From a virus (lineage: Duplodnaviria; Caudoviricetes): a stretch of DNA of 64,000 nt. The translations under genes were made by a program, and so were the position numbers. This document shows, piece by piece, positions 16,642 through 62,580 of this stretch (its first letter is position 1; every line of letters begins with the position of its first letter). The notes beneath the pieces were generated by a model. The model made no database searches and was not told the origin of the DNA. It was given only the letters and a program-made list of their open reading frames with translations. The stretch spans positions 3,710-67,709 of the IMG/VR virus record IMGVR_UViG_3300033072_001056. One strand, given 5' to 3'.

Positions 16642-16974
16642 ATGAGAAACTATTTAGTAGTAAAAGACGGATTTCAGCAAGTTGTTTCTGCTGATTCAAT
16701 ACACAGGAACATAGAAACTGGGCAAACATACTTTTGCCGAGAAGAACACGACGCGATCATAGCTATATTCCCAAAAGAAGCAATAATTGTAGAGGTAGAA
16801 GACTTAACCGAGTACCAAAAACTTCTTCAAGAAGCAATTAGCTGGCTAGATCACGTTAATCACAATGATAAAGAGATGGATTTAGAAGAATATGGAACGC
16901 TTGATTTTTGGAAAAAACAATTTCAAAGGGATTGGCTAAAACGATTCGAATATCTCTACGAGAAAACCTTATAA
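16642..16974 (+). CDS. Hypothetical protein
   Basis: ORF track. Confidence 0.6.
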   Translation: MRNYLVVKDGFQQVVSADSIHRNIETGQTYFCREEHDAIIAIFPKEAIIVEVEDLTEYQKLLQEAISWLDHVNHNDKEMDLEEYGTLDFWKKQFQRDWLKRFEYLYEKTL

Positions 16975-17015
16975 ACAAATCTTATTGATTCGCAAATTAC
17001 CATAGAGAAATAGTA

Positions 17016-17048
17016 TTTGACTCAAATGGTTATTATAGTGTAGATTTG
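17016..17048 (+). promoter_or_regulatory. Promoter
   Basis: TTTG-N21-TAGATTTG. Confidence 0.6.
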
Positions 17049-17109
17049 TAGAAAATAAATGTGCATAGTGGCGGAGTTGGTAAAAGCACAATTAGCAAAT
17101 TGAAAAAAA

Positions 17110-29290: not shown

Positions 29291-31951
29291 ATGAAAAATT
29301 TATCAGCAGATATTGAGATTGCTATTAAAGACGCAATTTCCGGAATGAATTTAGACATTAACATCTTAGATGTTGATGATGACAAATTAGCTACATTGAT
29401 GTCTTCTCGATTAGAATCATTTTCAGCCACAAAGGAAATGATAAAGCTTTGGCAAGAATCACCTAACGCGCCAAGCCAAGCAAAACTTAGAAAAAACGCA
29501 GAGGAACTTATAAAATCGGGAGAAAATTCGATAGAAGTACTTCGTCAAGCGCTTAGAAAAAAAATAGCCTTTAGCGAATTAGACACAGAGAAGTACGGAA
29601 AGGCTATTAAGTCCAAGCCCGTAATTTTTAAGGCAATTAACGAGATTAATGCCGGAGTACTATCTTTGAAACTTCAGTTAGACGCAGACCAATTAGACTT
29701 CAAAGAACGCGAATTTCGACGTGGATTTCCCGAGAAATTTGCTTCGCAAGAATTTTTTCCCGCAAAAGATTATCACAAGGAATGGTATGACAAAGAAACC
29801 GATTCGGTAATGATTTGTCCGCTTGGCACAAAAGGGAAAGTGATTACTCTTGACGGATTAAACATTATGCTTCCGGCGCCACCAAAATCAAAAAAGAAAA
29901 TACTTTTCAGTAATTTACCAAAAGAAGAACAGTATTGGCGAAGAATCGAACCTCCTCAAGGGCTTACTCCGGAAAACGAAGATGTGTACTACGATTTTAT
30001 TATCGAGGAATTCCGTAAGCGTAGGGAGGGAGTTTGGTTTATGAATAACGGTGAACCGGTATATCTTACCCCGGCGCATTATATGGCGTTACAATGGGTG
30101 AAAATGTTAGATACCGGCTCGTTTATGGATTTCAGATATGCGCAAGCAGAAATGTTTTACTTCACGCGCGCGTGTGTTTTAGATCCGCGATGTTTAGGAG
30201 AGCTGTTTGTAAAGTCACGTCGTACCGGTTTTACCTATCAGATTATTTGCGAAATGATAAATGACGGAACCGGAACATCAAATGCCAAACTTGGTATGAT
30301 TTCAAAAACCGGTGATGATGCCCAAGAAGCATTTTTAAAAATGACTTATGGTATTCAAAACTTACCATTCTTTTTTATACCGGTAGTCAAAGGCAAAATT
30401 GACAGTAAAACAGAAGTTGAATTTGCCAAGCCTTCAGATTCTAGTAAGGTTGCCAAAAAGAAAAAAGACAATAGTACCGATGATTACTTGAATACTTTGA
30501 TGAATTGGAAAACGACTACTGAATCTGCTTATGACGGACAAAGAATGTATCGTTTGTTAATTGACGAGGCGTCAAAACCACTACCCCCATTTAATCTTGA
30601 AACTTATTGGGGACGTGTATCTCCAACCATTAATAACGGTGGTAGGATTGTAGGTAAAATATACGTTGGTTCAACGGTAAACCCTATGAAACTTGGTGGG
30701 GACAAATTCTTGAGAATGTACAAAGGCGCTATGGTTTCAAAAAGAGACAAGGACACTCAAAGAACACCAAACGGTCTGTACGCCTACTTCTTGCCAGCTC
30801 ATAAAAACATGGAATTATTTACCGATAAATACGGAGTTTGTCATACTGTTGTACAGCCGGGCGAATCGTTTACCAATGTTTACGGAACTGAAATATTTGA
30901 AGGGTCAATTCAATATTTGGAAAATATCCGTCGCCAAAAAAGAAAGCAATCGGACATTTTGTACAATGAGGAATTGCGCGCTAATCCAATGACTGTTGAA
31001 GAAGCATTTAGAGATGAAGCTAAGGCAAGTATGTTTAATCTCGAGAAGATAAATGACCAAATTGCTTATAATGATTCTCAAGATATTGAGCAAAAACAAC
31101 TTGTTCGCGGTAATTTCCAATGGAAAGACGGGCAAAAAGATTCTGTCGTAGAGTGGCATCCAAATCCAAGAGGTAGATTTTTACTAAGTTGGATTCCACC
31201 TAAAGAATTACAGAATAAATGGGAGATGAAAGTCAATATGTTTGGTGGAAGAAGCAAGCATCCGTCTAATGAAGATTTAGGATGTCTTGGTATTGACTCT
31301 TATGATATTAATTCGACAGTTGATTCTAAATTAGAAAACACAGAGAACGGAAGCGAATGGTCGGGAGGTTCTAAAGGAGCAATATCCGGAGTTACTTCTA
31401 AATTCACATTGAAAGATGCCCCGAGCAACTCTTTCTTTTTAGAGTATATTGCCCGACCGGAAACAGCCGAGATGTTTTTTGAAGATTGTTTAATGGCTTG
31501 TGTGTTTTATGGTATGCCGGCGCTTGTCGAAAATAACAAAGCACGATTGCTTTATCACTTTAAAAACAGAGGTTACCGAGGGTTTTGTCTTAGCCGATTT
31601 GACAAGCCTTCTAACAGATTAAGTCCTACCGAAAAAGAAATTGGCGGAATTCCTTCAAACTCCGCGGACGTTATTCAAATGCACTATACTGCAATTGAGG
31701 CTTATGTAGAAAAATACGTTGGGTATTATACTCAAGGAGATGATTTAGCTCCGGTAAGAGAAGAAAATGAAATTGGTTCAATGCCGTTTAACAGAACATT
31801 GCGCGATTGGGCAAGTTTTAATATTTCAGACAGAACAAAATCGGATATTTCAATTGCCTCGGGTTATGCCTTAATGGGTGTAAACAGACATAGTTACAAG
31901 TTTCAAAACGAAGCACCGGCGCCAATTGCTTTTAAAATTCGTTATAATTAG
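29291..31951 (+). CDS. terL: Terminase large subunit with an ~150 aa N-terminal extension
   Basis: Walker A KSRRTGFT, Walker B LLIDEASK, nuclease GIDSYD, C-terminal D..IASGYALM. Confidence 0.9.
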   Translation: MKNLSADIEIAIKDAISGMNLDINILDVDDDKLATLMSSRLESFSATKEMIKLWQESPNAPSQAKLRKNAEELIKSGENSIEVLRQALRKKIAFSELDTEKYGKAIKSKPVIFKAINEINAGVLSLKLQLDADQLDFKEREFRRGFPEKFASQEFFPAKDYHKEWYDKETDSVMICPLGTKGKVITLDGLNIMLPAPPKSKKKILFSNLPKEEQYWRRIEPPQGLTPENEDVYYDFIIEEFRKRREGVWFMNNGEPVYLTPAHYMALQWVKMLDTGSFMDFRYAQAEMFYFTRACVLDPRCLGELFVKSRRTGFTYQIICEMINDGTGTSNAKLGMISKTGDDAQEAFLKMTYGIQNLPFFFIPVVKGKIDSKTEVEFAKPSDSSKVAKKKKDNSTDDYLNTLMNWKTTTESAYDGQRMYRLLIDEASKPLPPFNLETYWGRVSPTINNGGRIVGKIYVGSTVNPMKLGGDKFLRMYKGAMVSKRDKDTQRTPNGLYAYFLPAHKNMELFTDKYGVCHTVVQPGESFTNVYGTEIFEGSIQYLENIRRQKRKQSDILYNEELRANPMTVEEAFRDEAKASMFNLEKINDQIAYNDSQDIEQKQLVRGNFQWKDGQKDSVVEWHPNPRGRFLLSWIPPKELQNKWEMKVNMFGGRSKHPSNEDLGCLGIDSYDINSTVDSKLENTENGSEWSGGSKGAISGVTSKFTLKDAPSNSFFLEYIARPETAEMFFEDCLMACVFYGMPALVENNKARLLYHFKNRGYRGFCLSRFDKPSNRLSPTEKEIGGIPSNSADVIQMHYTAIEAYVEKYVGYYTQGDDLAPVREENEIGSMPFNRTLRDWASFNISDRTKSDISIASGYALMGVNRHSYKFQNEAPAPIAFKIRYN

Positions 31952-31952
31952 T

Positions 31953-31983
31953 TTTGGTAGATTAAAAAATATTACTATATTTG
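31953..31983 (+). promoter_or_regulatory. Promoter of tRNA array 1
   Basis: TTTG-N19-TATATTTG. Confidence 0.85.
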
Positions 31984-32000
31984 CCTCAAATAAAGAAGAA

Positions 32001-32075
32001 ATGAAAAAAATGATTACCATAAAAACGATTGCAAGAGTTGGGGATAATTTTCCAAGCAAGGGGACTATGGTGTAA
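32001..32075 (+). CDS. Leader peptide 1 (MKKMITIKTIARVGDNFPSKGTMV)
   Basis: Short ORF between promoter and terminator; codons 2-16 match the array-1 tRNAs. Confidence 0.8.
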   Translation: MKKMITIKTIARVGDNFPSKGTMV

Positions 32076-32099
32076 ATTTTGTTTAGTTTTAACACATAA

Positions 32100-32137
32100 A
32101 AAATCCCCTAATAACATTAGGGGATTTTTATTTTTTT
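32100..32137 (+). terminator. Attenuator terminator 1
   Basis: ATCCCCTAAT-AAC-ATTAGGGGAT plus T-tract; left arm also pairs with leader AGGGGA (32059-64). Confidence 0.85.
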
Positions 32138-32211
32138 GGGGGCGTATGTTTCAAGGCTGACGACTTTGATTTGCAATCAGAGTGAGGTGATTTCGATTAT
32201 CACCGTCTCCA
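32138..32211 (+). tRNA. tRNA-Ala(UGC)
   Basis: Cloverleaf, loop TT-TGC-AA, G3:U70. Confidence 0.85.
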
Positions 32212-32226
32212 CAACAATAAGACAAT

Positions 32227-32256
32227 ATGAAAACAAGTAAAAAGTTTAAGAAGTAA
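32227..32256 (+). promoter_or_regulatory. Lys-rich minigene MKTSKKFKK upstream of tRNA-Lys
   Basis: 5 of 9 codons are Lys; followed by mutually exclusive hairpins at 32257-32292. Confidence 0.65.
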
Positions 32257-32288
32257 TCTGCTCTCAATGATTGGGAGTAGAAATCTAT

Positions 32289-32361
32289 TCCCTCTAAACA
32301 TTATTGGTGGATGTACCAAACTTTTAATTTGGGAAGCCGTGTTCGAATCACGGAGGGGGAA
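32289..32361 (+). tRNA. tRNA-Lys(UUU)
   Basis: Cloverleaf, loop CT-TTT-AA. Confidence 0.9.
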
Positions 32362-32366
32362 CGAAA

Positions 32367-32439
32367 CGGAATATAGCTCAATTGGTGGAGCAATCGCCTG
32401 ATACGCGAGAGGTTATAGGTTCAAGTCCTTTTATTCCGA
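32367..32439 (+). tRNA. tRNA-Ile(GAU)
   Basis: Cloverleaf, loop CT-GAT-AC. Confidence 0.92.
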
Positions 32440-32445
32440 CAAAAC

Positions 32446-32518
32446 GCGAGTATGGTGTCAATGGTTAACATTAGAGACTTCCAATCTCAAGATGTCAGTT
32501 CGATTCTGACTACTCGCT
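32446..32518 (+). tRNA. tRNA-Gly(UCC)
   Basis: Cloverleaf, loop CT-TCC-AA, U73. Confidence 0.92.
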
Positions 32519-32523
32519 CAAAA

Positions 32524-32596
32524 GGTCTATAGGTCAAATGGGTAAGATGTCCGGCTGTCGCCCGGTACGGAGAGGGTTCGAATCCCTCATAGACCG
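32524..32596 (+). tRNA. tRNA-Asp(GUC)
   Basis: Cloverleaf, loop CT-GTC-GC, G73. Confidence 0.9.
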
Positions 32597-32602
32597 CTAA
32601 AT

Positions 32603-32675
32603 GCTTCTGTAATTCAATTGGTAGAAACCCGCATTTGTAACGCGGAAGTTGCAGGTTCGACTCCTGTCAGAAGCT
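32603..32675 (+). tRNA. tRNA-Thr(UGU)
   Basis: Cloverleaf, loop TT-TGT-AA; A31-C39 mismatch. Confidence 0.88.
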
Positions 32676-32680
32676 CAATT

Positions 32681-32751
32681 GCCCAATTTGCATAACGGAA
32701 GTGCCGTTGTTTTACACGCAACAGCAGGGTGTTCGATTCACTCATTGGGTA
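32681..32751 (+). tRNA. tRNA-Val(UAC)
   Basis: Cloverleaf, loop TT-TAC-AC. Confidence 0.88.
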
Positions 32752-32756
32752 CAAAT

Positions 32757-32827
32757 GTCGGTATAGTTCAACGGAAGAATAAGACCCTTCTAAGGTTTTG
32801 ATGAGAGTTCGAGTCTCTCTACCGATT
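32757..32827 (+). tRNA. tRNA-Arg(UCU)
   Basis: Cloverleaf, loop CT-TCT-AA. Confidence 0.9.
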
Positions 32828-32832
32828 CAATA

Positions 32833-32909
32833 GGGCTTGTATCGCCTCTGACTCATAATCAGTAGAAAGCGTAATCGGTCACACGGCGGTTCAATTCCGT
32901 CCAAGCCCA
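32833..32909 (+). tRNA. Atypical CAU tRNA (Ile2-like) with the D-arm-like hairpin 3' of the anticodon arm
   Basis: Perfect acceptor and T arms; anticodon arm CTGA-CTCATAA-TCAG starts 9 nt after the acceptor strand. Confidence 0.7.
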
Positions 32910-32913
32910 CAAA

Positions 32914-32985
32914 GGAAGTATGGTGAAATGGTATCACGACAGACTGTTAATCTGTTAGTTTCAAGTTCGAGTCTTGATATTTCCG
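32914..32985 (+). tRNA. tRNA-Asn(GUU)
   Basis: Cloverleaf, loop CT-GTT-AA, G73. Confidence 0.92.
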
Positions 32986-32992
32986 CTAAAAA

Positions 32993-33023
32993 TTTGATAA
33001 TTTGAATTTTATTTTTACATTTG
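32993..33023 (+). promoter_or_regulatory. Promoter of tRNA-Met and array 2
   Basis: TTTG-N19-TACATTTG. Confidence 0.85.
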
Positions 33024-33026
33024 CAG

Positions 33027-33098
33027 GGCGTGAAGGTGTAATCGGTTGCATTGGAGTCTCATAAACTCTACGGGGTGGTTCGAATCCACGACACGCTA
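33027..33098 (+). tRNA. tRNA-Met(CAU), elongator type (Ile2 not excluded)
   Basis: Loop CT-CAT-AA, G2:C71 and C3:G70; lacks the initiator GGG/CCC stem. Confidence 0.75.
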
Positions 33099-33112
33099 CA
33101 AAGACATATATT

Positions 33113-33184
33113 ATGAGAAATTTAAGTTTATGTTCGTTTTATTGGTTGTCGTTTAAAAACGACACGGGATATAGCGCGCATTAA
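33113..33184 (+). CDS. Leader peptide 2 (MRNLSLCSFYWLSFKNDTGYSAH)
   Basis: Codons 4-14 match the array-2 tRNAs. Confidence 0.8.
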   Translation: MRNLSLCSFYWLSFKNDTGYSAH

Positions 33185-33210
33185 ATTTACCTTGTAATTA
33201 TTTAAAAGCT

Positions 33211-33239
33211 AATCCCGTTCGAAAGTTCGGGATTTTTTT
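33211..33239 (+). terminator. Attenuator terminator 2
   Basis: AATCCCG...CGGGATT plus T5; left arm pairs alternatively with leader CGGGATATAGC (33165-75). Confidence 0.85.
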
Positions 33240-33242
33240 ATT

Positions 33243-33326
33243 GGGAGTAACGCTCGAATTGGTTAGGCGCTTGACTGTAAATCAGGTAATCTGCATAGAT
33301 AGGTGGTTCGAATCCATCTGCTCCCA
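33243..33326 (+). tRNA. tRNA-Tyr(GUA)
   Basis: Loop CT-GTA-AA, long variable arm. Confidence 0.9.
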
Positions 33327-33332
33327 CAAAAT

Positions 33333-33406
33333 AGCTGTATGGCGGAACGGTAGACGCATCAGACTTAAAATCTGTACAACTGTGGGTTCGACTCCCACTA
33401 CAGCCA
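33333..33406 (+). tRNA. tRNA-Leu(UAA) lacking the long variable arm
   Basis: Loop CT-TAA-AA; 6-nt variable region; A1-C72 mismatch. Confidence 0.85.
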
Positions 33407-33414
33407 CAAAAAAA

Positions 33415-33501
33415 GGAGGTATAACCCAAGTTGGTCTAAGGGGCGCTGTCTTGAAAACAGTTGGTCGTAATGGCGTGTAAGTTCGAGTCTTACTGCCTCC
33501 G
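33415..33501 (+). tRNA. tRNA-Ser(UGA)
   Basis: Loop CT-TGA-AA, long variable arm, G73. Confidence 0.92.
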
Positions 33502-33507
33502 CAAAAT

Positions 33508-33591
33508 GGAGAGTAAACTAATCAGGTGGTTAGACTTGTTTGCTAAACAATGGGTGGGTAAAACCTTGGGAATCGTGTTCTCTGCTCTCCG
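33508..33591 (+). tRNA. tRNA-Ser(GCU)
   Basis: Loop TT-GCT-AA, long variable arm, non-canonical T-loop ATCGTGT. Confidence 0.85.
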
Positions 33592-33600
33592 CTATAAATT

Positions 33601-33671
33601 GCTTCTCAGCGTAGGTTGTGCCAATCGGTCTCCAAAACCGTATTGTAAAGGTTCGAATCCTTTGAGTCGCG
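33601..33671 (+). tRNA. tRNA-Trp(CCA), degenerate acceptor and short D arm
   Basis: Loop CT-CCA-AA, canonical T arm, two acceptor mismatches. Confidence 0.72.
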
Positions 33672-33676
33672 CAAAA

Positions 33677-33749
33677 GGAAATTTGGCAGATAAGGTTATT
33701 GCGCTCGACTGAAAATCGAGAGGGCTCGGATCGTTACCGAGAATTTCCA
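33677..33749 (+). tRNA. tRNA-Phe(GAA)
   Basis: Loop CT-GAA-AA; T-loop ATCGTTA. Confidence 0.88.
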
Positions 33750-33754
33750 CAAAC

Positions 33755-33825
33755 GACAAGAAGCCTGACGGAGAAGGGTGCGGTCTGCAAAACCAAACAT
33801 CGCGGTTCGATTCCGCGTCTTGTCT
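33755..33825 (+). tRNA. tRNA-Cys(GCA)
   Basis: Loop CT-GCA-AA, U73. Confidence 0.88.
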
Positions 33826-33833
33826 CAAATTAG

Positions 33834-33905
33834 AACGCAATGCAAGATTCGAACTTGCGTCTTTTGGTTCGTAGCCAAAGATTTTTCCAATTAAACTAAT
33901 CGCGC
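33834..33905 (-). tRNA. tRNA-Arg(ACG)
   Basis: Loop CT-ACG-AA on the minus strand. Confidence 0.9.
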
Positions 33906-33910
33906 ATTTG

Positions 33911-33991
33911 TACGGACGAGAGGACTTGAACCTCCAAAGCTAACGGGTCTAAACCGCCAAGATGTGCCATTCTCAATAAAGCCACGTCCGC
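33911..33991 (-). tRNA. Atypical tRNA-Leu(UAG): enlarged D region, no long variable arm
   Basis: Acceptor and T arms intact; loop TT-TAG-AC; ~26-nt D region. Confidence 0.72.
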
Positions 33992-33996
33992 AATTG

Positions 33997-34068
33997 GGTG
34001 TTTTCGGGTCTCGAACCCTGTTCTCCGGATTCACAGTCCGGCACTTTACCTGTTAAGCTAAAAACACC
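33997..34068 (-). tRNA. tRNA-His(GUG)
   Basis: Loop CT-GTG-AA; encoded G-1:C73. Confidence 0.88.
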
Positions 34069-34074
34069 ATATAG

Positions 34075-34147
34075 TTTCTTTGTCAAGACTCGAACTTGAA
34101 CAACGAGAGTCAAAGTCTCGTATGCTAACCAATTACATCACAAAGAA
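34075..34147 (-). tRNA. tRNA-Gln(UUG)
   Basis: Loop CT-TTG-AC; U1:A72. Confidence 0.9.
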
Positions 34148-34153
34148 TTTTAG

Positions 34154-34225
34154 TAACGCATACGGGATTCGAACCCGTGATTAGAAATAGAAAGTTTCTT
34201 GTGCTGACCACTACACTAATGCGTC
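34154..34225 (-). tRNA. tRNA-Glu(UUC)
   Basis: Loop CT-TTC-TA (U at position 37). Confidence 0.88.
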
Positions 34226-34230
34226 TTTTG

Positions 34231-34307
34231 TCTAGTTGGCAGGAATCGAACCTGCGTAACTCCCGCTTCCAAGGCGGGCGAGTATATCCATCTGCTCCGA
34301 CAACTAG
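34231..34307 (-). tRNA. tRNA-Pro(UGG)
   Basis: Loop CT-TGG-AA; C1:G72, A73. Confidence 0.9.
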
Positions 34308-34311
34308 AAAT

Positions 34312-34340
34312 AAAAAAAGCCTCCCAATTACGGAAGGCTT
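34312..34340 (-). terminator. Attenuator terminator 3
   Basis: AAGCCTTCCG-TAAT-TGGGAGGCTT plus T-tract; left arm pairs alternatively with leader CGGGAGG (34379-85). Confidence 0.85.
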
Positions 34341-34365
34341 TAGCTAATATATTTTATTTACATAT

Positions 34366-34440
34366 TTACACGCTTGTTCCTCCCGATAAAATATCCGGCT
34401 CTTGAAGACGTTGTTCAGTATGTAATTTTAATCTTTTCAT
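34366..34440 (-). CDS. Leader peptide 3 (MKRLKLHTEQRLQEPDILSGGTSV)
   Basis: Codons 7-15 match the array-3 tRNAs; near-leaderless ATG. Confidence 0.8.
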   Translation of the reverse strand: MKRLKLHTEQRLQEPDILSGGTSV

Positions 34441-34444
34441 ATTG

Positions 34445-34474
34445 CAAATATATGAATACTTTTTAAGTCTGCAA
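34445..34474 (-). promoter_or_regulatory. Promoter of tRNA array 3
   Basis: TTG-N19-TATATTTG on the minus strand. Confidence 0.85.
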
Positions 34475-34484
34475 GTATTTATAG

Positions 34485-34554: not shown

Positions 34555-36984
34555 ATGGATAATAGTAAGAACGGCAATTTCAATATAAGCCCAATGGTTA
34601 GTTTTCCAAGTCAATTGGAGCCATTCGAAGTAAAAAAAACTAAAGAGTGGGGGCTAAGATTGGCTCAGTCAATACAAAGCGATTGGTTTTACGGGATGAA
34701 TACCGGAAACTTTTTGTCTTCTCAATTCAATTTGCAAAGACGTGATTTTTTACAAAGACGTTTATACGCAAAAGGATTGCAGTCAATGGACAAATACATA
34801 GAGCAATTCAAATCAGACGGAGACAAGTCGTTCTTAAACCTTCCAACTAAACCGATTAGTATTATCCCTAAATTAGTTGATGTGGTTGTTAATGGGATGG
34901 CCGACAGAGGTTATTCTATTCGTGCTACTTCAATTGACCCGATTGGTCACAAAGAAAGAGTAGCTTACAGAGAGCAGATTGAAACCGACGTTCTTTCAAA
35001 AGACATAATTGTTCAAGCAAAAGAAAAATTAGGCGTAGATGTGGCTAGTATGCCACTAGAACAACTTCCGGAGACCGACGAAGAATTGAACTTGCACATG
35101 GAACTTGAGTACAAGCAATCTATCGAGCTTTCTCAAGAATTGGCAATTGAGCAAGTAATGAATGACAACCGGTACAACGACAAAATAGACAGAATGGTTA
35201 AAAAAGACCTAACTATTTTGGGAGTTTCTTGGGTTAAACATCGTTTTGTTCCGGACAAAGGAATTGTAATCGAGTATGTAAATCCGGAAAACAAAGTGCA
35301 ATCATATACCGACGACCCTTATTTTGAAGATTGCTATTACCACGGAGAATTTAAGACGGTTCCGCTAACTCAAATTTATACGGATTACCAATGGCTTAAT
35401 CTTCCGGAAAACGCAGATATAAAAGCGCAAGTTGAATATTCAGCAAACGGATGGTGGGAATACAATTTGATTGCAAGCAACGACAGAATTAAAGGAGTTG
35501 CCAATTTGCTTTATTTTACATACAAAACCACAAGACCAAAGCAAAGAAAGATAAAACTCAAAGCCACCGGTGAGAAAAGAATTATCCCAATGGAATACAA
35601 AGGGAATCCGGACAAAAACCCAAACATTAAAATAACAACCGTAGAGGAAGAAGTTTTAATGGAAGGAGTTTATGTTTTAGGAACAGACATAATGCTTAAA
35701 TGGGAAGTTGCCGAATCTATGGTTAGACCAAAGTCTAACAGACAAAAGGTAATTGACCAATACATAGGTGTTGCTCCTAATATGGAAAGAGGTTATATTG
35801 ATTCGCCGGTTGCTAGAATGATACCTGTAGAAGACCAATTAAACATACTCGAATTAAAAGGCGCTCAAATCATTCAGAAAATACAACCTGACGGGTTTAT
35901 GATTGATGTGGATGCAATTGCCGAGTTAGATTTAGGAAACGGCTCCAAATTAACCGTTCAAAATGTTGTAGATATGTTTTGGCAAACCGGTAGTATTTTC
36001 ACTAGAAGTTTCGGAGCAAGTGGCGACCCAATGTATTCTAAGCCTATTACTGAATTAAGAACCGGAGACTCTATAACTAAACTACAAGCACTTACCGCTC
36101 AAAAAGCGCAGTATATGGATCAGATGCGTGACGTTATCGGATTAAACAAAGTTTCCGATGCTTCAACACCTGATAAAGATTCTTTAGTAGGAGTTCAAAA
36201 GCTTGCTTCTTTAAATTCAAATATTGCGACTCGTCATATTTTAGATGGGGCTTCTGACATAACAAAAAGAATTGCATTAGCTATTACATATCGAATTCAC
36301 GACTTATTAAAGTTCACCGAATTAAAAGAAGATTTTTCAAGAAAAATAGGTTCGACATCGGTTAAGACGTTAGAGTCTGTAAAAGATTTGCATTTGCACG
36401 ATTTCGCAATTTACTTAGATTTACATTTAGACGATGAGGAACGCGCGAAATTAGAACAAGATATGTCATTGGCAATTGACAAAGGGATGATGAGCATTCA
36501 AGATAAATACAAGGTTTTGAATATTAAAAACTTCAAACTTGCGTTGTCTTATATGACAATTTTGGTCAATAAATATCAGAAAAAACAACAAGAGCAAAAA
36601 GCCCAAGAGTACAAGATACAAGCCGATGAGAACATACGTGCTGCACAAAGCGCAGAGCAAGCTCGTCAGCAAACGGCTCAAATGATTAGTCAATTTGATA
36701 TGGCCAAGCAACAATTGGTTAATGACGGATTGATACAAAAAGAGCAAGTCAAAGGACAGGAAGACCGTTCTACATTGGAAATTAAAATCGAAGGAGATTT
36801 GATGGTTGCCCAAGCACAATCAGGTGTTAAAATGCAGATTCAAGAAGAAATGGAAAACCGTAAGGATGAAAGAGAGAATCTTAGATACACCAATCAAAGC
36901 AAGGAAAACTACAAAAAAGAAACCGGCGGTGCGCCAATTGACTTCACTCAAAACGATGAAATAAACGAAGTGTTTAAAATGTAA
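34555..36984 (+). CDS. Portal protein (crAss/phi14:2-like)
   Basis: Size and position after terL; FPSQ...K...EWG, RRLYAKG.Q, PISIIPK.VDVVVNGM motifs. Confidence 0.85.
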   Translation: MDNSKNGNFNISPMVSFPSQLEPFEVKKTKEWGLRLAQSIQSDWFYGMNTGNFLSSQFNLQRRDFLQRRLYAKGLQSMDKYIEQFKSDGDKSFLNLPTKPISIIPKLVDVVVNGMADRGYSIRATSIDPIGHKERVAYREQIETDVLSKDIIVQAKEKLGVDVASMPLEQLPETDEELNLHMELEYKQSIELSQELAIEQVMNDNRYNDKIDRMVKKDLTILGVSWVKHRFVPDKGIVIEYVNPENKVQSYTDDPYFEDCYYHGEFKTVPLTQIYTDYQWLNLPENADIKAQVEYSANGWWEYNLIASNDRIKGVANLLYFTYKTTRPKQRKIKLKATGEKRIIPMEYKGNPDKNPNIKITTVEEEVLMEGVYVLGTDIMLKWEVAESMVRPKSNRQKVIDQYIGVAPNMERGYIDSPVARMIPVEDQLNILELKGAQIIQKIQPDGFMIDVDAIAELDLGNGSKLTVQNVVDMFWQTGSIFTRSFGASGDPMYSKPITELRTGDSITKLQALTAQKAQYMDQMRDVIGLNKVSDASTPDKDSLVGVQKLASLNSNIATRHILDGASDITKRIALAITYRIHDLLKFTELKEDFSRKIGSTSVKTLESVKDLHLHDFAIYLDLHLDDEERAKLEQDMSLAIDKGMMSIQDKYKVLNIKNFKLALSYMTILVNKYQKKQQEQKAQEYKIQADENIRAAQSAEQARQQTAQMISQFDMAKQQLVNDGLIQKEQVKGQEDRSTLEIKIEGDLMVAQAQSGVKMQIQEEMENRKDERENLRYTNQSKENYKKETGGAPIDFTQNDEINEVFKM

Positions 36985-37044: not shown

Positions 37045-37150
37045 GTTATAACAAAAATCTATAACTTTCTAAATAACAACACTTTTTACTTATACTGCAT
37101 ACAAGTTACAATAGAATTGCCTACTTTTGAATAACTTTAAATAAATCTTT

Positions 37151-38356
37151 ATGGCTTCTATTTGGCGTCCTTACGACAAAATCATAAAAGAACTTCTTTT
37201 AAAACACCAAAACGACAATCCTAAACCTCCTTACACTTTTTACGCAAAAATAATTCTCGGAACCCGAGACGGCTCTACTATCGACAATAGAGTCGCAGAG
37301 TTGGCGAGGTACATTGGTAGAAACGAAAAGGCTATTCTCGATATGCACGAGGGGATATTTTTAGCCACTGAAAATTTAGACGTGGCAAATCAGAACGTAA
37401 AGCATATGTGGATTAAAGACAAAGGCGCTTCGTTGTTTATTAAAAATCCGAATTACACAGACCCAGAGCAAGATGTAAAAGAAATTGATTTTTTATCAAT
37501 TTTCAAAGAAAGCATAACTCCGGTAGAAGTTAATAAAAAGCAAAATCAATTTGGGGGCGCTATTTTTGATAGATTAGTGATAGCTGATGTTCATATTGGC
37601 ATGGACGTAAACAAGGACGGTTACGCTCTTTATGATGGTAAATGGGACGAAGTGACACTATTCGAAAGACTAGACGCTTTAGTAAACCACACCTTGCAAC
37701 ATCAAAAATCAAGAACATTAATCATTCACGACTTAGGAGATTATCTTGACGGATTCGACGGACTCACCACAAGGGGCGGGCATCAATTGCCTCAGAATAT
37801 GGATAACCAAATGATGTTTGATGTCGGTTTAAAATTCAAAGTGAAATTAGTAGATTCGCTAATTCCGTATTTTGATAAAATTCAGTTTGTAAATATTTGT
37901 AACGATAATCACGCCGGAAGTTTTGGGTACATAGTAAATTCAGCATTTAAAGCCTACATAGAGTTAAAGTATAAATCCGGAATAGAGGTGATTAATCAAA
38001 GAAAGTTTATAGACCACTATATTTTTGAAAACCGGTGCTTCATTTTAACTCACGGTAAGGACGATAAAAGTTTGAAGTTTGGATTTAAGCCAATTCTTGA
38101 TAGTTCGCAAATTGAAAAAATCAAAAACTACATTGACGAACATAAAATACACTCTCATAAAATTGAATTCAGCAAAGGAGATAGCCATCAATTAATATTA
38201 GACTTTACAAGTTCGACAAGTTTTGAATATCAAAATTTTGGAGCATTTAGTCCTCCGTCGGATTGGGTGAAAACAAATTTTAAAAACAGCATTAGTTGTT
38301 TCACTCACTTTAATTATTACGCGGATCAAAAATCAATAAACAATTACATATTTTAA
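37151..38356 (+). CDS. Calcineurin-like metallophosphoesterase
   Basis: ADVHIG, GDYLDG, NDNH, THG motifs. Confidence 0.8.
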   Translation: MASIWRPYDKIIKELLLKHQNDNPKPPYTFYAKIILGTRDGSTIDNRVAELARYIGRNEKAILDMHEGIFLATENLDVANQNVKHMWIKDKGASLFIKNPNYTDPEQDVKEIDFLSIFKESITPVEVNKKQNQFGGAIFDRLVIADVHIGMDVNKDGYALYDGKWDEVTLFERLDALVNHTLQHQKSRTLIIHDLGDYLDGFDGLTTRGGHQLPQNMDNQMMFDVGLKFKVKLVDSLIPYFDKIQFVNICNDNHAGSFGYIVNSAFKAYIELKYKSGIEVINQRKFIDHYIFENRCFILTHGKDDKSLKFGFKPILDSSQIEKIKNYIDEHKIHSHKIEFSKGDSHQLILDFTSSTSFEYQNFGAFSPPSDWVKTNFKNSISCFTHFNYYADQKSINNYIF

Positions 38357-38371
38357 TCAAATTAATCAATT

Positions 38372-41877: not shown

Positions 41878-42876
41878 ATGGGAAACAACAATTGGAAGCC
41901 GTTCGGGAGCAATAATTCCGGACAGCAAAAAAATGAAAATCAGTCAAAAGAAAGTCAAGAAGTTGATGAAAAAACAACGACTGAAGAACCAAAAATCCTT
42001 ATGACACCTTCTGAAATAGAAGCGTTGTTAGAAAAAAAGCTTGAAGAAAAACTTCAGAACACTTCAAAGCCTGAGCCGGTACAAGAGAAAGTTATTACTC
42101 AGATCAAAAACACAAATACCGACGAAATTCCCGAATTGAGAAATTTTGTTCCTAAAGAACGTATTTACGTTTTAACCAATGGAACTAAACCTATTTCTCA
42201 CGGATTACAAACAAGACACAAGCCGGGAAGTCCGCTTCAGTACATTAATCCGGAAACAAAAGAAGTACACGCTTTATTTTATTCATTGACCGAGACGTCT
42301 TTTTTCAAAGACAAACATAAGGGCGATGCAAGAGTAGAACACGTTCACTTCAAAGACGGTATGCTAAAGACTTATGAGCAAGACATCAAATTGCAAAAGT
42401 TCTTAGCTATTCACCCGGGCAACAAAGCAATGGGTGGTACTTTATTTGAGGAGTACAATCCTTCAAAAGAAGCAGAAACCACATTAGAGCAAGAAGAATT
42501 ATTATTCAAGGCAATGGAAGTTTCAAGAAGCATCAGCTTTGTTAAGTTAGACGCAGTAGCGAGATTATTGTGTTCTGATTACAAAGAAACTTGGGAGCCG
42601 GCAGAAGTTAAAAAAGCAGTTTACTTGGAGGTTAAAAAACAACCGACAAATTTCCTTAAATTGGCAAATGACCCAGTTTTAGAGATGAAAGGAATTGCAA
42701 AAACCGCTGTTGACAGAGGATTGATTACTTACAAAAACTACCGATTCTTAAACGATAAAGGAGAAGTAATTTGCGAAGTATCAAGAAACCAAGACGAGTA
42801 CGATGCTATTTGTGAGTATTTCTTAACCGGTAATGGAAGAACAACATACGAGTTTCTTCGTAACGCAATCAGTTAA
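41878..42876 (+). CDS. Virion structural protein following the MCP
   Basis: R.Y.L...PL.Y...F..G.L...LQKFL..HP pattern. Confidence 0.6.
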   Translation: MGNNNWKPFGSNNSGQQKNENQSKESQEVDEKTTTEEPKILMTPSEIEALLEKKLEEKLQNTSKPEPVQEKVITQIKNTNTDEIPELRNFVPKERIYVLTNGTKPISHGLQTRHKPGSPLQYINPETKEVHALFYSLTETSFFKDKHKGDARVEHVHFKDGMLKTYEQDIKLQKFLAIHPGNKAMGGTLFEEYNPSKEAETTLEQEELLFKAMEVSRSISFVKLDAVARLLCSDYKETWEPAEVKKAVYLEVKKQPTNFLKLANDPVLEMKGIAKTAVDRGLITYKNYRFLNDKGEVICEVSRNQDEYDAICEYFLTGNGRTTYEFLRNAIS

Positions 42877-42974: not shown

Positions 42975-43712
42975 ATGATTTCTGTAAATCAGGTTAGAAA
43001 TGTTGTGATGTTTTTTTTAGCGAAGAACAACCGCGGTTATCTTGGTGTAGACGAATTTAATTCGTTTTGCCAATTAGCGCAATTGGATATTTTTGAGAAC
43101 TTATTCTACCAATACAACCAATTTCTAAATAAAGAAAACAAAAGGTTGACCGGTACTGAATACGCAAACATTCCTAAAAACTTACGCGAACAAATTGACA
43201 TTTTTGCCGAGTACACTACAGAATCAAACTTTACATACGACGGAGCAACTAATCTTTGGACTTACACGGGTAATGATTTATACAGAGCAGAGAACTTGTC
43301 ATTAGTAGAAACTGCTACTCAGAAAAAGATTGACATTCAAGAGGTTCAAAAAAGAGATTTGAATATTTTGAAGAATTCGCCAATGACGGCGCCAAGTTTA
43401 TTATTCCCTTACTATGTTCGTAAAGGAGTTGGATTTGAGATTTCGCCAATTGTTCCGAGCGATTATTATGCGGAGCTTTTCTACATTAGAACGCCTAAAG
43501 CGCCGAAGTGGACTTATGTGCTTGTTCAAGGCAATCCGCAATATAACGGCTCCGCAAGTGATTTGCAAAACATCGAACTTCACGAAAGTTTATTTGAAAA
43601 AGTTGTAGCCAAGGTATTGTCTTACGCTGGCTTGTCAATTCGTGAGGCAGAAGTGATTCAAGCAGCGAATTCAGAAGAAATGAATACTTGGCAAATGCAA
43701 AATCAACCATAA
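42975..43712 (+). CDS. Tail ring / head-tail adaptor protein
   Basis: V...V...L.KNNRGYL...EFN...AQLDIFE; YIR.PK.PKW.Y. Confidence 0.7.
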   Translation: MISVNQVRNVVMFFLAKNNRGYLGVDEFNSFCQLAQLDIFENLFYQYNQFLNKENKRLTGTEYANIPKNLREQIDIFAEYTTESNFTYDGATNLWTYTGNDLYRAENLSLVETATQKKIDIQEVQKRDLNILKNSPMTAPSLLFPYYVRKGVGFEISPIVPSDYYAELFYIRTPKAPKWTYVLVQGNPQYNGSASDLQNIELHESLFEKVVAKVLSYAGLSIREAEVIQAANSEEMNTWQMQNQP

Positions 43713-60261: not shown

Positions 60262-60462
60262 TTAATTTTTCTTTACTGACGTGTGTTCTAAAAATTTAGA
60301 AAGAGTGAAATTTTCATAATGTTCTCGAATTCTTTTTCCAATAGCCGATTCTTTAACTTTAAATATAAATTCTCTGCTAATGCACGGAGTTTCAAGTATG
60401 AATTGTTTTTGAGCAATTTCACGCTTAAAATCCTCTAATTCATTTACATTCTTACTTTCCAT
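60262..60462 (-). CDS. Hypothetical protein
   Basis: ORF coupled to the integrase stop. Confidence 0.5.
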   Translation of the reverse strand: MESKNVNELEDFKREIAQKQFILETPCISREFIFKVKESAIGKRIREHYENFTLSKFLEHTSVKKN

Positions 60463-61705
60463 TTTCCCAATATTTTTGAAGTTTGTCAGCGTGTTCTTTT
60501 TTCGTTGTCTGAACGTATTTTAGTAGCATTGACGGATTTGACCATCCAAGTACTGCCATTATAGAATTATCCGGTATTTTACCGTATAAATTAGACGCCA
60601 TTGAGCGACGGCAAATATGCGTGGTGAATAATTCATATCTCTTGTAATACCCGATTTCTTTTCTTTTAGTTTTGGAATTCCACTTTTTACCATAGACTAA
60701 ATTGTCAAATCCGCAAATCATCCCAATAGTCTTTATTGCTTTCCCAAATTCATACTCATTCATCTTAGGCGGTAATTGACCAAATCGACTTGCTATAATC
60801 TCCTTTACAATTCTGTGCAATGGTATCACTACTTTAGTCTTTGTTTTTTGAGTAGTAATGGTAATGTAGTCATCTTTGATATTCGACAAGTCTAATCTCG
60901 TTAAGTAATCAGACACACGAAGCCCAGTAAATATACCTATCAATAAATTGTCTTTGGCAACTTGAAGTTTTTCGTCAAAACTAAAATCGGTAGTGTAAAT
61001 AACTTCTACTTCTTTTTCATTCAAATAAACACCGTCAATATCTTCTTCTTTTTCAAGGTAGATTCTTTTGTTGTAAGCTGATGATATTTTGATTCCTTTT
61101 TCACTTGCACGGTTGCAAAAGAATTTCAATCTGCCGATAATTCTGTCAATGGTAGAAACGTTGTAGTCAAGATGTTCTTGGAGATAATTGACAAATTCGT
61201 AAAAATCGTCAACATCAATATCCTTCATCAAAATTTTTCGATTTGTAAATCGTTCAAATTCAACAAGCAAACCCACGGCATTTTGATATTGACCAAGCAT
61301 TGTTTTACCGATTACTTTGTTATGAGATACCTTCCAAGCCTTACCATCTGTTTTTAACCATTCATTTGCAAATGCGGATAAGTAAATATTTGCGTCAGAA
61401 TTGACTAATTTCTTTTCTCCCGACGGTCTGTCAAAAACATCTGAGATAATCGATTGTAGCCAACGTTTGCCAATGATTTGTCCTGTCACATAGCTATTGT
61501 TGTATTCTGATAGTATGGTTTTCTTTAATTCGAGAAGTTTCTCGTTCACAATTGGCGAATTCGTCAATAATTGCAGTTCAGAATCCCAACCATCAGCCTC
61601 CACAAATATCTCAAGCGCACAAGAAATATCCAAGTCTTTTTTCTGACATCGGACAATAACTCTCGATTGCTTTTTGGTTTGGTAAAGTTTGAAAGATACA
61701 TTCAT
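60452..61705 (-). CDS. int: Tyrosine recombinase / phage integrase (Bacteroidetes type)
   Basis: TGLRVSD, QKT, THICRRS, LGWSNPSMLLKY catalytic motifs; ATG at 61705. Confidence 0.9.
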   Translation of the reverse strand: MNVSFKLYQTKKQSRVIVRCQKKDLDISCALEIFVEADGWDSELQLLTNSPIVNEKLLELKKTILSEYNNSYVTGQIIGKRWLQSIISDVFDRPSGEKKLVNSDANIYLSAFANEWLKTDGKAWKVSHNKVIGKTMLGQYQNAVGLLVEFERFTNRKILMKDIDVDDFYEFVNYLQEHLDYNVSTIDRIIGRLKFFCNRASEKGIKISSAYNKRIYLEKEEDIDGVYLNEKEVEVIYTTDFSFDEKLQVAKDNLLIGIFTGLRVSDYLTRLDLSNIKDDYITITTQKTKTKVVIPLHRIVKEIIASRFGQLPPKMNEYEFGKAIKTIGMICGFDNLVYGKKWNSKTKRKEIGYYKRYELFTTHICRRSMASNLYGKIPDNSIMAVLGWSNPSMLLKYVQTTKKEHADKLQKYWENGK

Positions 61706-61715
61706 AATTACTGAT

Positions 61716-61889
61716 TTACTTTTTGATTTCAAATTGTTTTCTCATAGCAAGAATTACCTGCTTGAAATTTTCTTTTTGTTTGCTTGGAACTTGAATAGAT
61801 AAAATCACACCAAAATCGTCAATATAAATTGTTGGTCGGCCGGCATTTGATTTTTTTTCAGCTCCTTTATTCGTGAGTTGTTTGCCCAT
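61716..61889 (-). CDS. Small basic protein with AGRP motif (57 aa, not in ORF track)
   Basis: MGKQLTNKGAEKKSNAGRPTIY...LSIQVPSKQKENFK. Confidence 0.5.
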   Translation of the reverse strand: MGKQLTNKGAEKKSNAGRPTIYIDDFGVILSIQVPSKQKENFKQVILAMRKQFEIKK

Positions 61890-62580
61890 TGTTAAATTCT
61901 TTTATTAGTTTATCCAATCCTTTTTTCTTCAATACAAATCGTTTTGTTTTAATATCTCTGCGATTTATGGTGATTATTTCGTAAATTGTCTTGGCATATC
62001 CCATTTCTTCTGCATAGCGAGTTGATGATGTTCCATTGGTTTCTTTCACGGTCTTCCATTTCTTTCTTTCCAATAATCCGCAAAGAGTTGTTCTGCCGAT
62101 ATTTAAAATATCACTTACCGAATCAAGAGTGTAAGTGTTGGCCGAATCAATTACATTTTCAAAAGCGATTACCTTTGGCGCTTGTTCAGAAATCAATAAA
62201 GATTGTCTTTCGATTTGCTCCGCTTGCTCACTTGCTAATCTTAGCGCTTCGGAATAAGTTTGGGGTATTCTCGGTGTTTTTGACTCTAATTCATTTAATC
62301 GATTTAAAACACCCTTACGGACTGTTCTGCTTTCGCTCATCAGCATTAACATACATTCGTCTTTTGGCAAATTGTAGCATTTATATACCTGATTATTAGA
62401 CGCTTTGTATTCACTACGAAATTTTTCACAGTCATCATCAAGCTCTTTTTCTATTTTCGCCATAAAGTCGATGTGGCGAACCATAGTAGAGTTACCTTCA
62501 AATCTTCGATATTCATTAATAACATCTACTAATTGAACACTACTCATAGTCGTTTCCTGCTTCGGAATTAAATTATTCAT
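61867..62580 (-). CDS. Rha-like / antirepressor protein with KilAC domain
   Basis: TMSSVQL...H.DF..KI; PQTYSEALRLA...QAPKV. Confidence 0.8.
   Translation of the reverse strand: MNNLIPKQETTMSSVQLVDVINEYRRFEGNSTMVRHIDFMAKIEKELDDDCEKFRSEYKASNNQVYKCYNLPKDECMLMLMSESRTVRKGVLNRLNELESKTPRIPQTYSEALRLASEQAEQIERQSLLISEQAPKVIAFENVIDSANTYTLDSVSDILNIGRTTLCGLLERKKWKTVKETNGTSSTRYAEEMGYAKTIYEIITINRRDIKTKRFVLKKKGLDKLIKEFNNGQTTHE

Follow-up and report, generated by a model that had tools for sequence, protein, structure and literature searches.

The window analysed here, a 64,000-nucleotide stretch of the IMG/VR virus record IMGVR_UViG_3300033072_001056 (Caudoviricetes; positions 3,710 to 67,709 of the record), represents most of a 67.7-kb phage genome with a G+C content of 35%. 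It carries a tRNA cassette of about 2.5 kb (31953..34478), which reaches from the terminase stop codon to the portal promoter. With the large-terminase gene at 29291-31951 on one side and the portal gene at 34555-36984 on the other, the cassette lies inside the late structural module. Its 24 tRNA genes are packed in 2.2 kb (32138-34307) and form a phage-borne tRNA gene cluster, outside of which no tRNA gene was detected in the 67.7-kb genome by relaxed ARAGORN. The cassette is organized in three transcription units, each of which has a promoter box, a leader open reading frame (ORF) of 23-24 codons and a T-run hairpin located 2-8 nt before the first tRNA.

Seven cassettes were compared, namely those of the window and of Cellulophaga phage phi38:1, and five from viral metagenomes (G004/L007, hereafter G004, L028, L030, L032 and L034). 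The features of the window cassette are listed below; unless another basis is given, tRNA genes were called by ARAGORN and Rfam and show compensatory pairs.

31953..34478, no strand: whole cassette, three promoter-leader-terminator units and 24 tRNA genes; replaced by 16 bp in a close relative
31976..31983, plus: -7 box of unit 1 (TAnnTTTG, Bacteroidota-type), by motif search; conserved before leader 1 in G004 and phi38:1
32001..32075, plus: leader ORF 1, 24 codons; codons 2-16 all read by array 1, including ATA and AGA
32099..32129, plus: terminator hairpin 1, 8 nt short of tRNA-Ala; the 5' arm is able to pair with the final codons of the leader
32138..32212, plus: tRNA-Ala (UGC) with G3:U70; ARAGORN, 11 doubly changed stem pairs among 6 homologues
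32227..32256, plus: Lys-rich mini-ORF (MKTSKKFKK) in the gap between tRNA-Ala and tRNA-Lys; conserved in G004, L028, L032 and L034
32289..32362, plus: tRNA-Lys (UUU)
32367..32440, plus: tRNA-Ile (GAU)
32446..32519, plus: tRNA-Gly (UCC)
32524..32597, plus: tRNA-Asp (GUC), G37 against A37 in the host
32603..32676, plus: tRNA-Thr (UGU)
32681..32752, plus: tRNA-Val (UAC)
32757..32828, plus: tRNA-Arg (UCU)
32833..32909, plus: CAU tRNA #1, probably tRNA-Ile2 (AUA); Rfam 33.7 bits, compensatory pairs against G004
32914..32986, plus: tRNA-Asn (GUU)
33016..33023, plus: -7 box of the unit 2 promoter, directly before CAU tRNA #2, by motif search; conserved in G004
33027..33099, plus: CAU tRNA #2, read as a Met tRNA of initiator descent
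33113..33184, plus: leader ORF 2, 23 codons, of which a run of 11 is read by array-2 tRNAs alone
33203..33240, plus: terminator hairpin 2, ending 2-3 nt before tRNA-Tyr; RNAfold -11.7 kcal/mol, with an antiterminator alternative
33243..33326, plus: tRNA-Tyr (GUA) with long variable arm; Rfam 36.6 bits, compensatory pairs
33333..33407, plus: tRNA-Leu (UAA) without long variable arm
33415..33502, plus: tRNA-Ser (UGA)
33508..33592, plus: tRNA-Ser (GCU) with A54/U58 T loop; relaxed ARAGORN only, 12 doubly changed pairs, 7 homologues
33601..33672, plus: tRNA-Trp (CCA) with two acceptor-stem mismatches; Rfam 24.1 bits, relaxed ARAGORN
33677..33750, plus: tRNA-Phe (GAA)
33755..33826, plus: tRNA-Cys (GCA); Rfam 33.6 bits, relaxed ARAGORN, compensatory pairs
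33833..33905, minus: tRNA-Arg (ACG), A37 against G37 in the host
33911..33991, minus: tRNA-Leu (UAG) with enlarged D region, A37 and no long variable arm; Rfam 28.7 bits, 16 doubly changed pairs
33996..34068, minus: tRNA-His (GUG) with G-1:C73 and A37; ARAGORN, Rfam
34074..34147, minus: tRNA-Gln (UUG) with A37; ARAGORN, Rfam
34153..34225, minus: tRNA-Glu (UUC) with U37; ARAGORN, Rfam
34230..34307, minus: tRNA-Pro (UGG) with A37; ARAGORN, Rfam (E<=10), compensatory pairs
34316..34341, minus: terminator hairpin 3, closely preceding tRNA-Pro; shared unchanged by G004, L032 and L034
34366..34440, minus: leader ORF 3, 24 codons, with a His/Glu/Gln/Arg-CGN/Leu-CUN/Pro run
34445..34452, minus: -7 box of unit 3, separated from the leader ATG by 4 nt, by motif search

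Sorting of the arrays and their leaders

The tRNAs of array 1 read A- and G-first codons, those of array 2 U-first codons plus Ser-AGY, and those of array 3 C-first codons plus Glu. Array membership and first codon base share 1.20 bits of mutual information, a value reached by 0 of 1,000,000 permutations, which upholds the sorting by first codon base claimed in the original prediction; the same test reveals no sorting by the second codon base. Duplication was considered as the main cause of this order and rejected. Identity within arrays is only 1-2 points above that between arrays, so recent duplication fails to explain the sorting.

The central run of each leader is composed only of codons that are read by the tRNAs downstream of it. 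This attenuator layout of a leader ORF and a terminator is found in the three units of the window, in the six further cassettes and in the phages phi19:1 and phi10:1 (both Assiduviridae). Across the seven cassettes, the leader codons follow the content of the array. In phi38:1, where tRNA-Asn and tRNA-Leu (UAA) are relocated, the leader codons have moved likewise, and in L030 both the Lys tRNA and the Lys codons are absent. In nascent-RNA folds, the 5' arm of the terminator pairs with the last leader codons in 3/3 units. The antiterminator of leader 1 has one compensatory change, noted by eye, between G004 and the window, and the equilibrium favours the terminator in units 1 and 3. The leaders look like sensors of their own tRNAs, and the Lys-rich mini-ORF in array 1 may be a fourth one, dedicated to a single tRNA.

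Single rows are also found on their own. The block of phi19:1 is composed only of a leader, a terminator and the Pro, Gln, His, Leu (UAG) and Arg (ACG) tRNAs, which make up the whole C row; Glu is missing both among its tRNAs and from the codon run of its leader. The block of phi10:1 holds only a leader, a terminator and the Tyr, Trp, Phe, Ser (UGA) and Cys tRNAs. Since these row blocks stand alone, the sorting reflects functional units, which can be owned singly or together.

Integrity and decoding capacity of the 24 genes

With default settings, ARAGORN reports 18 tRNAs. Rfam likewise gives 18 with the gathering score as cutoff, but 22 at E<=10, where it scores tRNA-Ala as a tmRNA-like tRNA domain. 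Relaxed ARAGORN runs add Ser-GCU, Trp-CCA and Cys-GCA, whereas CAU tRNA #1, Tyr-GUA and Leu-UAG are identified through Rfam and homologues, and the union of the methods amounts to 24 genes. The combination of ARAGORN and curation, proposed originally as a check, thus arrives at the predicted 24 tRNAs for 20 amino acids without duplicates. One relaxed ARAGORN call, which names 33911-33991 Pro-UGG, was rejected, given that homologues, called Leu-UAG by ARAGORN in other cassettes, and the alignment both give Leu-UAG.

The order of the slots is identical across the cassettes compared, 23-24 slots are retained in the six complete ones, and the tRNAs are 65-77% identical. Every slot contains 6-18 stem pairs with compensatory changes on both sides (6-7 cassettes aligned), which indicates that all 24 genes are under selection for the cloverleaf and that none is a pseudogene. 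The genes of lowest quality are Trp (24 bits, two acceptor mismatches), Ser-GCU, which has no Rfam match, and CAU tRNA #1, which has no normal D arm. Their odd features are stable variants and not signs of decay, because other, independent cassettes have them too: Ser-GCU has its A54/U58 T loop in three cassettes (the window and two others), Trp its acceptor mismatches also in three (window, L030, L032), and a Leu-UAG with an enlarged D region and Leu tRNAs of both kinds without long arms are found repeatedly as well. Ser-GCU folds into a cloverleaf-like structure (z = -2.7).

Atypical T loops are also seen more widely. Many T loops of the Asp, Val, Asn, Ile and Thr tRNAs of G004 and of Ser-GCU and Phe of the window deviate from the TTCGA/TTCAA motif (for example, AGCGTTA, AGCATAA and ATCGTGT), and several swap positions 54 and 58 jointly (T/A to A/T), which suggests that the reverse-Hoogsteen pair is retained. 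A single low-depth metagenome contig (run X5) joins across tRNA-Ser (UGA) at 33414-33504; it would hint at a natural variant without this gene, but is too weak to use. Public records under-annotate these genes: 16 tRNAs are listed for phi38:1 (NC_021796.1) versus about 24-25 counted, 2 versus 5 for the stretch of phi10:1 that was read, and 4 versus 5 for that of phi19:1.

The anticodon list agrees with the original prediction: seven family boxes (Ala, Gly, Thr, Val, Pro, Ser and Leu) have a U34 tRNA, Arg CGN has ACG, each half-box of a split box has one tRNA, Trp has CCA, and two tRNAs have CAU. With one tRNA per box or half-box, no duplicates and no more than 25 species, this is a minimal (superwobble) set. 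The minimum for the standard code is 25 tRNA species including the fMet/initiator tRNA (PMC3499367), and the 24-tRNA set is this published minimum less one CAU species. Its description as a complete decoding set holds for the amino acids, all 20 of which are covered, and for the boxes. At the level of codons, standard rules give 60/61, the exception being CGG, the least used codon of the phage (0.6 per 1000), which I34 does not read; the coverage of AUA is conditional on CAU tRNA #1 being tRNA-Ile2. Watson-Crick pairing serves 49% of the phage codons and 17% require four-way reading by U34. The reading of four codons by U34, the deamination of A34 and the lysidine at C34 of tRNA-Ile2 are presumed steps. 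In four of the seven family boxes (Val, Leu, Ser, Pro), the U-ending codon is the commonest, yet there is only a U34 tRNA.

The CAU tRNAs of Flavobacteriaceae fall into three types: the initiator has C1xU72, A11:U24 and GGG:CCC, the elongator Met tRNA has U32, and tRNA-Ile2 has C4:G69 and C5:G68. CAU tRNA #1 is probably a tRNA-Ile2 that reads AUA. It has C4:G69, a determinant for TilS in Escherichia coli, its slot is taken by tRNA-Ile (UAU) in phi38:1, and the window, G004 and phi38:1 all keep an ATA codon in leader 1. Copies of the L028 type in this slot are closest to Ile-GAU of the host (62-69%). Its anticodon hairpin is nested within a short helix, followed by a D-loop-like strand, and the anticodon stem has two compensatory pairs with respect to the G004 copy, which is the only match in an exact-pattern scan for this build. 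The same build, in which the anticodon hairpin stands almost directly after the acceptor strand and a D-loop-like TAATCGG occupies the position of the variable region, is common to CAU tRNA #1 (window, G004) and Arg-UCU of G004 (G004:C1:4554-4633). This recurrence in two isoacceptors suggests that the alternative fold is workable.

CAU tRNA #2 is 60% identical to the Flavobacteriaceae initiator, 55% to elongator Met and 48% to Ile2. The top of its acceptor (G2:C71, C3:G70, U72, A73) equals that of the host initiator, its 1:72 pair is weak or mismatched in 7/7 cassettes, and in L030 and L034 the corresponding tRNAs keep A11:U24 and share 78-80% identity with the host initiator. The window copy has lost A11:U24 and the three G:C pairs of the host initiator (29-31:39-41); with G1:U72, U11:A24 and one G:C among the three positions, it lacks the hallmarks of a bacterial initiator. 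The statement that the set has no initiator is nonetheless not safe, as the nearest host tRNA of CAU tRNA #2 is the initiator. Its gene comes immediately after a promoter of its own and ahead of leader 2, outside attenuator control, a site that would suit an initiator because a sensor based on stalling cannot report initiator shortage. It is read here as a Met tRNA of initiator descent, perhaps a dual-purpose one.

Host, divergence and spread of the cassette

The terminase is 56% identical to those of the Flavobacterium 'elemo' podoviruses, and further relatives infect Cellulophaga, Tenacibaculum and Maribacter. Together with the Bacteroidota-type promoters, the hosts of these relatives point to Flavobacteriia as the host. 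Prophage relatives that could name it were absent from a terminase scan of 185,579 species genomes. The metagenomes that contain the stretch are labelled freshwater and wastewater, and contigs from four metagenomes show the same terminase-cassette-portal arrangement for one or more independent freshwater samples, at ~98% identity. Enzymes for tRNA processing, CCA addition, RNA ligation, modification (TilS) or charging were not found among 40 ORFs of >=120 aa searched in PHROGs, which are all but four of the ORFs of this size beyond the first 3.7 kb of the genome.

None of the 24 genes encodes CCA, as originally claimed. Positions 74-76 are CAA in 17, CTA in 6 and CGA in 1, and all 24 have C74 and A76 with a non-C at 75. 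This is no special dependence on the host, because the chromosomal tRNA genes of the host clade look alike: 0 of 39 distinct Flavobacterium genes have CCA, and most have CAA, CTA or CGA, whereas CCA is present in about 3/41 Flagellimonas genes. The absence of CCA is the norm of the clade.

Position 37 sets array 3 apart. The first codon base corresponds to anticodon position 36, which decides the chemistry at position 37, with m1G37 for C-first, i6A37 for U-first and t6A37 for A-first codons. The five C-row decoders have G37 in both host genera and A37 in the window, five other cassettes and phi19:1; the C-row tRNAs of G004 keep the host pattern. In the window, position 37 differs from the hosts in 6/6 tRNAs of array 3, 1/11 of array 1 (Asp) and 0/7 of array 2, and some U-row tRNAs of other cassettes have G37 in place of A37. 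Considered as possible anti-defence tRNAs, the six of array 3 and Asp differ from the host in the anticodon stem-loop at position 37, which is not known to be the target of a cognate nuclease. The switch would fit selection for independence from, or invisibility to, a factor that acts via position 37. Overall, identity to host isoacceptors is 57-73% for the phage tRNAs, whereas the two host genera are mutually 78-100% identical, and this low identity argues that the phage tRNAs are old phage lineages and not recent captures.

The cassette is an accessory element. In one relative, rated 100% complete and with about 95% identity over the shared regions, 16 unrelated bp stand in its place, so that the terminase stop is followed by 16 bases and the portal promoter, and the codon usage of this relative is indistinguishable from that of the window phage. 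A second complete relative has zero tRNAs. The first has one tRNA-like hit in 68.7 kb (G001:C1:55254-55324; Rfam 33.7 bits, Ile-AAU in relaxed ARAGORN), which lies beside a homologue of window ~16971-17071 and has no counterpart in the window. The position of the cassette varies: in L032 it stands beside the terminase, as in the window, in L034 after the capsid genes, and in L028 and L030 between homologues of the window genes 41878-42876 and 42975-43712, while phi38:1 carries it in the genome of a different virus family. Single tRNA alleles are shuffled among the cassettes in a mosaic manner. With its patchy distribution over three virus families, the cassette is a long supernumerary array (L-array).

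A compact array of 11 tRNAs (Tyr, Trp, Ser-GCU, Cys, Glu, Lys, Leu-UAG, Leu-UAA, Gln, Phe, Arg-ACG) is located in the chromosome of Flagellimonas sp. S174 (G006:C1:2620285-2621250). Its tRNAs look phage-like, with a Leu-UAA that resembles the L028 copy and a Glu with U37, and no codon-matched leader was found upstream of it.

Function and known counterparts

Judged from its sequence, the cassette is read here, with fair but not high confidence, as a self-contained, movable and demand-gated spare decoding set, and not as compensation for codon bias. The tRNAs would be excised by the RNase P and RNase Z of the host, finished by its CCA-adding enzyme, and modified and charged by its enzymes. When the tRNAs of a row become scarce, slow reading of the leader would leave a stalled ribosome that frees the antiterminator, with read-through into the tRNA genes of that row, and the cassette would in this way replace tRNAs as the need arises. 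Defences of the host that cleave or deplete tRNAs could cause the shortage, as could infection-induced tRNA decay or starvation of the host. The low identity to host tRNAs and the change at position 37 are compatible with tRNAs that were selected to escape, or not to need, host factors acting on the anticodon loop.

The preference of the original prediction for a backup set over codon-bias supplementation is the better fit, because the relative without the cassette has the same codon usage, boxes rich in U-ending codons are served by U34 only, no codon bias sets phi38:1 apart from its hosts (PMC5335546), and the blocks are gated by leaders. A more specific version, to be held only tentatively, is that Flavobacteriia phages exchange codon-row modules (promoter, leader, terminator and the tRNAs of the row), which jointly make up a minimal decoder. 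The modules would be organized by rows since host tRNAs fail row-wise, possibly through loss of, or attack via, the position-37 modification, from which the phage copies would have been freed by the change of G37 to A37.

Several points weigh against a spare decoding set. Four-way reading by U34, required for 17% of the codons, is inefficient in some boxes and CGG is uncovered; two CAU tRNAs have to serve three jobs (initiation, Met elongation and AUA); and the structurally odd CAU tRNA #1, Trp, Ser-GCU and Leu-UAG may be poor in function. All synthetases, modification enzymes, RNase P/Z and the CCA enzyme must come from the host, so the cassette is no defence against attacks on these. The leaders would also stall under amino-acid starvation, where extra tRNA is useless. 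A close relative does without the cassette, and its benefit is accordingly conditional or small. The stretch is in none of the RNA runs looked up.

The rival that survives best, although it is unlikely, is a general translation booster, which would provide more tRNA for the late burst in slow-growing, tRNA-poor freshwater hosts, with the leaders acting as homeostats. The place of the cassette within the late structural module, the mere 40-50 or so tRNA genes of the host clade and an attenuator that senses slowing of any cause agree with it, as does the MazG-like pyrophosphohydrolase of the phage; in other phages, MazG-like enzymes have been proposed to blunt the stringent response. A booster, however, should favour the most-used codons, for example by G34 for U-ending family-box codons, and could contain duplicates, while the cassette keeps exactly one tRNA per box, and the position-37 switch of the C row and the stand-alone rows in other phages are left unexplained. 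These three features lean towards a counter-measure to tRNA depletion over a plain booster.

It is improbable that the cassette is a selfish or near-neutral mobile array spread by recombination among co-infecting phages. Its presence varies in near-identical genomes, its sites differ, its tRNA alleles are mosaic, a related 11-tRNA array sits in the Flagellimonas chromosome, and L-arrays are known to spread horizontally (PMC8421152). Yet no homing endonuclease or recombinase lies within or adjoining the cassette, the structure of its 24 genes is under purifying selection, the set is complete, and the leader codons co-vary with the content of the arrays.

Codon-bias compensation, in which tRNAs serve codons that are used more by the phage than by the host, is the classical explanation of phage tRNAs and would gain from a U34-only set that works best on A-ending codons in an AT-rich phage, but it is very unlikely here: all boxes are covered without preference, the sibling without tRNAs does not differ in codon usage, phi38:1 gives no example of such a bias, and Flavobacteriaceae are AT-rich too. 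That the cassette is a decaying remnant, an incomplete set in which several low-scoring genes are pseudogenes, is highly improbable despite the six genes that score beneath default thresholds, the two Trp mismatches and the lack of a normal D arm in CAU tRNA #1, since independent cassettes repeat the odd features of Ser-GCU and Trp and compensatory changes are seen in the stems, including the anticodon stem of CAU tRNA #1 against G004.

The closest known counterpart is the cassette of phi38:1 (Callevirus, Pervagoviridae; G12 of Morgado & Vicente 2019, PMC6409571), which is homologous and has the same slots. It shares the orders Ala-Lys-Ile-Gly-...-Arg, Tyr-Ser-Ser-...-Cys and Pro-Glu-Gln-His-Leu-Arg and the same leader-terminator units, but it has Asn and Leu-UAA in other blocks, uses tRNA-Ile (UAU) as AUA decoder, carries block 3 on the same strand and has protein genes between the blocks. 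The Cellulophaga phage clusters have been described as sharing a conserved central block of isotypes, not as a minimal or row-sorted set (PMC6409571). Because this homologous cassette resides in a cultured phage of Cellulophaga baltica, bench tests are feasible.

Among other phages with clustered tRNAs, T5 has 23 in a region that is dispensable, and a changed anticodon stem-loop enables individual T5 tRNAs (Lys, Tyr) to save infection when host defences cleave tRNAs (PMC11464382, PMC11555353, PMC10264068). XacN1 has 56 tRNAs, mycobacteriophages have 34-36, and the C1 cluster of mycobacteriophages is another large set. None of these sets was found reported in the literature as a one-per-box minimum, and they are not described as row-sorted or leader-gated; the window genome is, in addition, only 68 kb.

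In Anabaena, a supernumerary and near-complete array of 23 tRNAs has spread horizontally, is silent in normal growth and is induced by impaired translation, and similar arrays are mentioned in plasmids and phages (PMC8421152). Its control is exerted by a protein repressor, TrcR (PMC10272220), instead of leader peptides, and the Anabaena array is not reported to be minimal or row-sorted. The superwobble sets known from plastids, mycoplasmas and mitochondria (Alkatib et al. 2012, PMC3499367) likewise have U34 per family box and ACG for Arg CGN and stand at the theoretical minimum in number; they are the sole tRNAs of their systems and a product of genome reduction, whereas the window set is an add-on beside that of the host, with 33 anticodon species in the Flagellimonas genome that was read. 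The multivalent attenuators of amino-acid operons (thr, ilvGMEDA, trp, his, phe) also consist of a short ORF with regulatory codons, a terminator and an alternative pairing that a translating ribosome would mask, but in the window cassette the controlled genes are the tRNAs themselves.

Near-complete phage tRNA clusters, anti-defence phage tRNAs and stress-induced L-arrays were thus known already. New are the rows as separable modules and the six array-3 tRNAs that differ from the host at position 37, and no literature was found on an exactly minimal phage set, on codon-row modules or on the control of tRNA genes by leader peptides. The purpose of phage tRNAs has been debated for about 50 years, and a cassette that is exactly complete, non-redundant, optional between near-identical phages and moved as a unit is a clean natural case against codon-bias compensation. 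It also raises the question of what makes tRNAs fail by codon-table row in the cells of Flavobacteriia, where the position-37 change of the C row points to the layer of tRNA modification or to nucleases that read it. A natural 24-tRNA set beside a full host set may further be of interest for minimal or orthogonal translation systems.

The remaining genes of the phage include a chaperonin pair, RecT, exonuclease genes, the MazG-like pyrophosphohydrolase, an integrase and an anti-repressor. A second clean indel relative to the ~95% identical phage is located at 37062-38370 of the window (ORF 37151-38356, 401 aa; phrog_22398, a weak match to a DNA repair exonuclease). The tyrosine integrase (window 60452-61732) and the Ant-like anti-repressor (61867-62580) indicate that the phage may be temperate, a lifestyle that is unusual alongside a full tRNA set.

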